A stretch of DNA of 64,000 bases from Escherichia coli (GTDB lineage Bacteria > Pseudomonadota > Gammaproteobacteria > Enterobacterales > Enterobacteriaceae): assembly GCF_009931435.1 (NCBI RefSeq), contig NZ_CP043415.1. One strand, 5' to 3'. Numbering within the stretch: the stretch's first letter is position 1; each line of letters opens with the position of its first letter. The position numbers and the translations under genes were made by a program. This document shows positions 36,402 through 36,640 of this stretch, in pieces. The notes beneath the pieces were generated by a model that worked only from the letters and a program-made list of their open reading frames with translations, was not told the origin of the DNA and did not search any database.

Positions 36402-36560
36402 CTACTTACCGGATTCGTAAGCCATGAAAGCCGCCACCTCCCTGTGTCCGTCTCTGTAACGAATCTCGCACAGCGATTTTCGTGTCAGATAAGTGAATAT
36501 CAACAGTGTGAGACACACGATCAACACACACCAGACAAGGGAACTTCGTGGTAGTTTCAT
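36402..36560 (-). CDS. hok: Hok/FlmA membrane toxin, 52 aa
   Basis: Translation [52 protein letters not shown] matches Hok; not in ORF track because under 60 aa. Confidence 0.92.
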
Positions 36561-36618
36561 GGCCTTCTTCTCCTTGCGCAAAGCGCGGTAAGAGGCTATC
36601 CTGATGTGGACTAGACAT
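36406..36618 (-). CDS. mok: Mok (modulation of killing) overlapping reading frame, 70 aa
   Basis: 70-codon ORF overlapping hok in another frame and starting upstream of it. Confidence 0.6.
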
Positions 36619-36640
36619 AGGGATGCCTCGTGGTGGTTAA
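36565..36640 (+). ncRNA. sok: Sok/FlmB antisense RNA (position approximate)
   Basis: Inferred from hok/mok architecture only. Confidence 0.35.

Follow-up and report, generated by a model that had tools for sequence, protein, structure and literature searches.

Whether the short hok reading frame between psiA and a promoter-like repeat in Escherichia coli contig NZ_CP043415.1 belongs to a complete toxin-antitoxin module, and how the recipient of the DNA that carries it would escape killing, are the two questions that this locus raises. An earlier note on a 64,000-nucleotide stretch of this contig (the whole stretch is hereafter called the window, and all positions refer to it) had assigned positions 36402-36640 to a hok/mok/sok post-segregational killing module and had asked how, with a toxin gene placed behind an early promoter region, killing is avoided on entry. 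Here we describe the module, its predicted RNAs and its surroundings. As far as sequence, folding and homology can establish it, the locus is very probably an intact R1/R100-type hok/mok/sok type I toxin-antitoxin (post-segregational killing) module in the leading region of an F-like plasmid.

The hok locus lies in the leading region of an F-like plasmid

An Rfam search of the window placed the traJ 5' UTR/FinP at 32448-32556 and detected antisense RNAs within traI and traG, in an F-type tra operon that occupies the minus strand. On the plus strand, a sequence match to the nic consensus located an F-type nic sequence, TTTGCGTGGGGTGT|GGTGCTTT, at 33357-33378. [quoted passage not shown] The genes of the leading region are all encoded on the minus strand and transcribed towards oriT; they are a DUF932 (ygeA-like) gene, a 95-aa ORF, hok, psiA, psiB, a ParB-like yfjB, DUF905, ssb and a methyltransferase gene. 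Upstream of hok and in the same direction lie psiA (36840-37559, minus strand; Pfam PsiA, E=1.3e-37) and, upstream of psiA, psiB (37556-37993, minus strand; Pfam PsiB, E=3.3e-63), with ssb, which encodes SSB, at 42324-42902 (minus strand). The ygeA-like gene near hok contains a premature stop.

The hok module is flanked by psiA on one side and by the first copy of a repeat (35515-36141) on the other, which is where the earlier note had put it. Measured from the hok promoter to the 3' hairpins, the whole module spans ~36295-36769. The interval originally assigned to it, 36402-36640, does enclose hok and mok, but it takes in just the first half of sok and is therefore too short.

The hok and mok reading frames are intact

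The hok toxin gene occupies 36402-36560 on the minus strand, with 52 codons (36405-36560) followed by TAG, and is preceded by a Shine-Dalgarno sequence, AAGGAG, at 36570-36575 on the same strand. The translated product matches Pfam HOK_GEF (PF01848) with 76.5 bits (cutoff 22; E=1.2e-21) and is identical to the UniRef sequence named ‘Protein Hok’ (RepID=HOK_ECOLX), which bears out the initial recognition of a known 52-aa Hok; in PLSDB the gene is annotated as ‘type I toxin-antitoxin system Hok family toxin’. As also proposed from the start, a mok frame of 70 codons and a TAA stop overlaps hok. It is present in the ORF list at 36406-36618 (minus strand), matches Pfam DUF5431 over its full length (E=2.6e-41), and has an identical sequence in UniRef under the name ‘Protein FlmC homolog’ (FLMC2_ECOLX). 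The mok frame, which is offset by 58 nt and lies in the +1 frame with respect to hok, begins upstream of the toxin gene, runs through its translation start and covers almost all of it. The longest hok ORF in the ORF list, which starts from an upstream TTG, measures 59 aa, and an ORF cutoff of 60 aa thus misses hok, as had been pointed out, while mok, at 70 aa, would show. Searches of the 64-kb window by tblastn and blastn returned a single hok locus.

The hok promoter and the elements of the hok mRNA

A sigma-70 promoter scan identified the hok promoter on the minus strand at 36740-36769, where a -35 hexamer TGGTCA (36769-36764) is separated by an 18-nt spacer from a -10 hexamer TATGAT (36745-36740). 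The functional -10 box of R1 hok has the same sequence and is located at -12 to -7 (Le Rhun 2023, PMC9841398), and by this spacing the +1 of the hok mRNA falls at 36733. The -10 hexamer (TATGAT or TATAAT) occurs at the same position in all six aligned homologues, even in those with diverged upstream sequence. Numbering from 36733 moreover reproduces the R1 residues given for tac, the anti-Shine-Dalgarno box and the mok Shine-Dalgarno by Le Rhun 2023 (PMC9841398), that is, G4/C5/U6 in tac, A70/G71/C72 in the anti-Shine-Dalgarno box and G105/A106 in the GAGG motif.

All elements described for this mRNA can be located on the minus strand of the window. The tac element (nt 1-10, GGCGCUUGAG; 36724-36733) is invariant in seven of seven homologues and pairs with nt 387-396, where fbi (CUGAAGCGCC; 36338-36347) is found; the AAGCGCC of fbi is likewise invariant among the homologues. 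The ucb element, or anti-Shine-Dalgarno box (nt 70-77; 36657-36664), pairs with the region of the mok Shine-Dalgarno, which can be read directly in the sequence as GAGG at nt 105-108 (36626-36629). The full-length hok mRNA would be ~397 nt long (36337-36733); its +1 is supported by the evidence above, and its 3' end is presumably near 36336-36337, as placed from the R1 length of ~398 nt.

Two hairpins lie in the 3' part of the transcribed region. The upstream one is GC-rich (GGCGGGCGCAGGCCCGCC, followed by UUUU; nt 342-363; 36371-36392, minus strand), carries compensatory changes in four pairs, and is expected from this analysis to form the 3' end of the processed, truncated hok mRNA; in R1 the 3' hairpin of hok mRNA blocks 3' exonucleases (Le Rhun 2023, PMC9841398). 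The downstream one is a terminator-like hairpin, GGGGCUGCUGGUUCGCCGGUAGCCCC (GGGGCUGCUGG...CCCC), followed by UUUCUCCUU (nt 405-439; 36295-36329, minus strand), and is conserved in the homologues. Judging from its form, it may be the primary transcription terminator; a simple terminator scan made no call on it. A weak Rfam match of this hairpin to the L25 leader (E=0.22) was put down to chance.

The hok mRNA is predicted to fold back on itself

The 397-nt hok RNA has a minimum free energy of -175.9 kcal/mol, compared to -128 ± 6 kcal/mol for shuffled sequences (z=-8.1), and in the minimum free energy fold of this full-length RNA tac (nt 1-10) is paired with fbi (nt 387-396). This is the 3' fold-back that the earlier note had asked to be looked for: the 3' element at 36338-36347 closes onto the very 5' end of the message. 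Both the minimum free energy fold and the consensus fold pair the mok Shine-Dalgarno region (nt 103-108) with ucb (nt 72-77). In shortened hok RNAs, tac pairs instead with nt 18-29, which corresponds to the published metastable hairpin (PMC9841398). The consensus fold of seven homologues retains 119 pairs, of which 11 show compensatory changes, and keeps the tac/fbi helix, the 5' hairpin, the ucb/mok Shine-Dalgarno helix and the 3' hairpin. As tac and fbi do not vary among the homologues, their pairing is backed by conservation and energetics and not by covariation.

Unconstrained folding of a 361-nt truncated hok RNA gave a structure that stays closed, and the open form was not obtained in this way. 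We therefore compared the cost of the open form between the two RNAs by enforcing the tac/ucb pairs G4-C72, C5-G71 and U6-A70. The open form was less stable by 12.5 kcal/mol (+12.5) in the 397-nt RNA, whereas the difference was +0.2 kcal/mol in the 361-nt RNA. Once the 3' 36 nt, which contain fbi, are gone, the RNA hence no longer favours the closed form, which is what the published model calls for.

A Sok antisense RNA is predicted on the opposite strand

The sok promoter was recognised by direct reading and by conservation on the plus strand at 36574-36602, with a -35 TTGCGC (36574-36579), a 17-nt spacer and a -10 TATCCT (36597-36602), and overlaps the hok Shine-Dalgarno region of the opposite strand. 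With 7 of 12 consensus positions it was not called by a simple sigma-70 scan, and for that reason its conservation in divergent homologues was tested instead. The motif, consisting of TTGCnn, 17 nt, and TATCCT, CATACT or TAATCT (yAnnCT), is present in five divergent plasmid homologues, namely F, three IncF or other plasmids at 80-83% identity and one IncN plasmid.

The predicted Sok RNA is ~64 nt long (~36608-36671, plus strand; both ends are inferred); its 5' tail (36608-36620) leads into a hairpin (36621-36668), and its 3' end is U-rich. Its fold has an energy of -27 kcal/mol (z=-6.0). When the homologues were folded one by one, six of six displayed this layout, with a free tail of 12 nt ahead of the hairpin and a U-rich end behind it, and the sequence of the tail varied among them. 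The Sok alignment contains little covariation, in part since its most divergent sequence aligned poorly, and the folds of the individual sequences are the better evidence. Being encoded in cis, the predicted Sok is fully complementary to the hok mRNA and spans both the mok Shine-Dalgarno (36626-36629) and the mok AUG (36616-36618). A sok promoter and antisense complementarity, the features on which the initial assignment had been made to depend, are thus both present, the one at 36574-36602 and the other across the mok Shine-Dalgarno and start codon, and both are conserved in the five homologues.

A further candidate for Sok came from Rfam and was rejected. Model RF01794 matches 36558-36734 on the minus strand over the full model (88.9 bits versus a gathering score of 59; E=1.6e-18); this match is in the sense of hok and ends at the hok AUG, and it is therefore evidence for the hok leader only and not direct evidence for Sok.

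The module resembles those of R1 and R100 and is widespread

Likeness to R1 was judged from the UniRef name, from alignment with R100 and from the match in residue numbering. By these measures Hok is identical by name to that of the R1 hok/mok/sok (parB) system, mok likewise has 70 codons, and the hok -10 box (TATGAT, -12 to -7) and the numbering of tac, ucb and the mok Shine-Dalgarno are the same as in R1. In both R1/R100 and the window the module is situated downstream of psiA. Between the hok promoter and the hok stop codon R100 differs from the window by one substitution, and in the 3' UTR by one further substitution and a 2-nt indel, a GC that R100 and F both have between the 3' hairpins and fbi and that is missing from the window. 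Sequence comparison detected no functional difference between the module of the window and those of R1/R100.

The flmA/flmB/flmC locus of F has the same position (psiA, flm, Frpo1) and the same orientation as hok in the window, and shares with it the promoters, tac, fbi and a Hok-family toxin, at ~93-94% identity overall. In contrast to these shared elements, the 5' tail and target loop of FlmB/Sok differ between F and the window at many positions, which means that the antisense recognition sequence differs, and the two arms of the antisense hairpin are shorter in F than in the window, one by 2 nt and the other by 3 nt, through compensating indels. More distant are the hok/sok loci next to psiA in p103605_146, pEcl6-2, pE02162_KPC and pKPC-c606, with 80-83% identity to the window. 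In these four plasmids homology to the window begins exactly at the mRNA +1, and they retain tac, fbi, the spacing of the sok promoter, the arrangement of Sok and psiB-psiA as neighbours, whereas the hok promoters and the Sok tails differ and psiA is separated from hok by one or two additional small ORFs. Toxins of the same Hok/Gef family, governed by the same type I antisense logic, are also encoded by the chromosomal hokA-E (hok/gef) loci in E. coli and by srnB/pnd in F and R483 (PMC9841398; bioRxiv 10.1101/2025.08.07.668861); the sequences and genomic contexts of these loci are other than those of hok in the window.

The 439-nt module was found in at least 5000 PLSDB records, with 100% identity in many of them and across several genera. 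Most carriers among the matches listed are conjugative plasmids from Escherichia, Klebsiella, Salmonella and Shigella. IncF, IncN/MPF_T and MOBP plasmids repeatedly show psiB followed by psiA and then hok, in some cases with one or two small ORFs just ahead of hok.

hok lies at the end of an Frpo2-like unit and upstream of the Frpo1-like repeat

The repeat next to the module (repeat families D1-D3) is present in three direct copies of roughly 630 bp. Copy 1 (35515-36141), which is the Frpo1 homologue and lies downstream of hok in the direction of transcription, aligns with the segment of F between flm and ygeB; copy 2 (42885-43525), the Frpo2 homologue, lies upstream of ssb and aligns with the F segment upstream of ssb; and copy 3 occupies 46220-46669. 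Copies 1 and 2 are direct repeats that are 99% identical over 300 nt and 7.37 kb apart, with hok/sok between them. Folded as single-stranded DNA, the plus strand of copy 1 forms a long hairpin (-181.9 kcal/mol; z=-8.9), and scanning the Frpo-like repeat for linear promoter hexamers gave none. The direction of Frpo transcription and the assignments of Frpo1 and Frpo2 were taken from PMC9849209. [quoted passage not shown] 2023, PMC9849209).

Since leading-region transcription runs on the minus strand towards oriT, hok is upstream of copy 1 and is not driven by it. The idea of a toxin behind an early promoter hence does not hold for the adjacent repeat, but it may hold in part for copy 2: hok is at the far end of the Frpo2-like unit, about 6.2 kb downstream of copy 2. 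This unit is interrupted by an IS21-family element of 1.95 kb (38830-40779), which carries rve and IstB genes on the plus strand, is flanked by an 8-bp duplication, splits yfjB and so comes between copy 2 and psiB/psiA/hok. The closest PLSDB plasmids, among the matches listed, are without this insertion. Scans of the minus strand revealed no strong intrinsic terminator on the way from copy 2 to hok, nor between psiA and hok. The IS21-family insertion probably weakens any read-through into hok in this plasmid.

Killing on entry is most plausibly avoided by the inert fold of hok mRNA

The template for hok is the plus, and thus the transferred, strand, and the template for Sok is its complement. 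The entering DNA can consequently template hok-sense RNA and never Sok. Such hok-sense RNA would arise from the entering strand just by read-through from upstream. When we folded a transcript extended in the 5' direction from psiA, it kept the closed tac/fbi and ucb/mok Shine-Dalgarno fold, and any early hok-sense RNA would be expected to take up this closed, untranslatable form on entry. For F, single-stranded DNA is converted into double-stranded DNA ~4 ± 1.6 min after entry (PMC9849209). Completion of the complementary strand within minutes would make Sok available well before processed hok mRNA accumulates. From these considerations we infer that the translational inertness of full-length hok mRNA is the most plausible reason why recipients would not be killed on entry. 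Our literature search found no direct study of hok, flm or Sok expression in early transconjugants.

Discussion

The elements described above allow the course of events known from R1 (PMC9841398; bioRxiv 10.1101/2025.08.07.668861) to be proposed for this plasmid. A sigma-70 promoter would produce a hok mRNA of ~400 nt starting at 36733, which would be locked by the tac/fbi pairing with ucb concealing the mok Shine-Dalgarno, while a promoter on the opposite strand, inside the mok/hok leader, would produce the ~64-nt Sok directed against the mok Shine-Dalgarno and start codon. If the R1 model applies, the full-length message should be stable, untranslated and not bound by Sok, and slow 3' trimming should remove fbi and let the RNA refold into the tac/ucb stem, upon which mok would be translated, with hok translation coupled to it. 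As long as the plasmid is present, abundant and unstable Sok would pair with the processed RNA, and RNase III would destroy the duplex. In plasmid-free segregants Sok would be the first to decay and the pool of hok mRNA would mature, and Hok, a small toxin of the inner membrane, would then kill the plasmid-free cell.

Two other views of what the locus is can be weighed against an intact R1/R100-type module, and both appear highly improbable to us. That the copy has decayed or been silenced, with a toxin ORF left behind in a non-functional module as at several chromosomal hok loci, might be thought of because neighbouring genes show damage, with an insertion sequence inside yfjB and the premature stop in the ygeA-like gene; however, either promoter, either reading frame and either Shine-Dalgarno sequence is intact, as are tac, ucb, fbi and the hairpins, and many plasmids of several genera carry the 439-nt unit with 100% identity, which together leave this view very little room. 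Slightly less probable still is that the locus is an F-type flm (flmA/flmB/flmC) variant with a different antisense specificity and not R1-type hok/sok. It occupies the place that flm has in F, between psiA and Frpo1, and its mok frame goes by the name of ‘FlmC homolog’, but Hok itself carries the name HOK_ECOLX, the Sok tail and the target region are identical to those of R100, and F departs from them at many positions and by the compensating hairpin indels. The distinction between flm and hok/sok is in any case mostly one of naming inside one family.

A different matter is why an intact module should be found at this position, and here a tentative alternative deserves more weight, even though we do not favour it: a functional module could be kept in place by a role in the leading region and not by segregational killing only, either as a guard of the Frpo-flanked segment or as an actor in establishment. 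Recombination between copies 1 and 2, which are 99% identical over 300 nt and flank hok/sok, would remove hok/sok along with ssb, psiB and psiA, and cells that had undergone the deletion would be killed; a safeguarding role of this kind has already been proposed for flmAB in F (Couturier et al. 2023, PMC9849209). Samuel et al. (2024) report, in addition, that leading regions are enriched in toxin-antitoxin genes, which are encoded on the T-strand. The order psiB-psiA-hok is, furthermore, maintained across IncF, IncN and MOBP plasmids. Against such a role counts the ability of hok/sok to stabilise unrelated replicons in any context, as known from work on R1 parB. A leading-region role for hok/sok is a proposal so far, and it would be compatible with classical post-segregational killing, with which it shares its mechanism.

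We therefore keep to the reading of an intact R1/R100-type hok/mok/sok module, which is a textbook plasmid-addiction module in its canonical place; it represents no departure from the known system, and the presence of hok/sok in leading regions has been noted earlier (Samuel et al. 2024). The locus does hold some lessons for annotation. A cutoff on short ORFs hides the toxin gene, and the module extends beyond the coordinates that were first given to it. Databases also contain two traps, as the Rfam ‘sok’ model matches the strand of the hok leader and not Sok, and some records retain a legacy ‘protein sok’ CDS.

Beyond its part as a segregational killer, the module might conceivably serve as an establishment checkpoint, an idea that we regard as rather unlikely: hok mRNA made early by read-through would kill those recipients that transcribe the incoming strand yet never complete or keep the plasmid, for example owing to its destruction by host defences, and would also eliminate deletions arising by recombination between Frpo1 and Frpo2. 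The orientation of hok, the fact that no strong terminator was found between psiA and hok, and the conserved synteny fit this idea without supporting it directly. It follows from the asymmetry between the strands, and the literature anticipates part of it. On entry, the toxin is templated by the strand that arrives first, minutes before its antisense partner can be made.

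Repeat and transfer elements of the leading region

At 33357-33378 the plus strand carries TTTGCGTGGGGTGT/GGTGCTTT, the nic sequence of an F-type oriT. Since this F-type sequence is on the plus strand, the plus strand is the transferred strand. The distance from hok to nic is 3.0-3.4 kb. A Frpo-like (single-strand promoter) repeat is present in three direct copies (35515-36141, 42885-43525 and 46220-46669). Copies 1 and 2 lie 7.37 kb apart, are 98-99% identical over two main segments and enclose ssb, yfjB, psiB, psiA and hok/sok; the identity of copy 3 is 67-92%. As single-stranded DNA, the plus strand of copy 1 is predicted to fold into a long hairpin (z = -8.9).

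An IS21-family element interrupts yfjB

Within this interval the ParB-like leading-region gene yfjB is interrupted by an IS21-family element of ~1.95 kb (38830-40779), which encodes an rve transposase (38916-39938) and IstB (39935-40717), both on the plus strand, and is flanked by two minus-strand yfjB fragments (38045-38863 and 40727-42022). Comparison with an uninterrupted relative revealed an 8-bp overlap between the flanks of the element, which indicates a target-site duplication. The insertion, which is absent from the closest PLSDB plasmids, lies between the Frpo2-like repeat with ssb on one side and psiB, psiA and hok on the other. The psiA-hok interval itself is occupied in the more distant hok/sok loci L004-L007 by one or two small hypothetical ORFs (230-375 bp, at ~2600-3000 in each locus), the first of which overlaps the psiA stop codon in most of these loci; these small ORFs are absent from the window, F and R100.

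The window contains other RNA elements. On the minus strand, Rfam matches at 53913-54059 (133 bits, group II intron domains D1-D4) and 51711-51787 (66 bits, catalytic domain) suggest that a group II intron of ~2.3 kb is inserted in the plasmid at 51711-54059. The plus strand carries an ALIL pseudoknot (60996-61112), which serves IS3-family insertion sequences as their frameshift element, and the Rfam antisense RNAs AS-traI (4648-4724), AS-traG (13346-13431) and AS-pc01 (45997-46096), the last of which falls within the leading region, at coordinates slightly lower than those of repeat copy 3.

Database annotation of sok and of the Frpo repeats

The match to Rfam RF01794 ('sok antitoxin') at 36558-36734 is on the minus, that is the hok-sense, strand and has its end at the hok AUG. 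RF01794 models the hok mRNA leader rather than Sok RNA, and the match would give the wrong strand if taken for sok. Related GenBank records contain a 'protein sok' CDS opposite the hok leader (6361-6549 in the related locus L001; equivalent to ~36640-36828, plus strand, in the window) and 207-bp 'single-stranded DNA-binding protein' CDSs within the Frpo repeats (5240-5446 and 10651-10857 in L001; window equivalent 35519-35725, minus strand). Both kinds of CDS appear to be spurious or legacy annotations that assign proteins to non-coding RNA or to DNA-structure elements.

The ygeA-like gene is truncated

The reading frame of the ygeA-like DUF932 gene (34266-35087, minus strand) is interrupted, relative to F, by a stop at codon 203 of 273 (...TPE*IITPRR...). 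This truncation is notable because deletion of ygeA strongly reduces conjugation of F (Couturier et al. 2023, PMC9849209).
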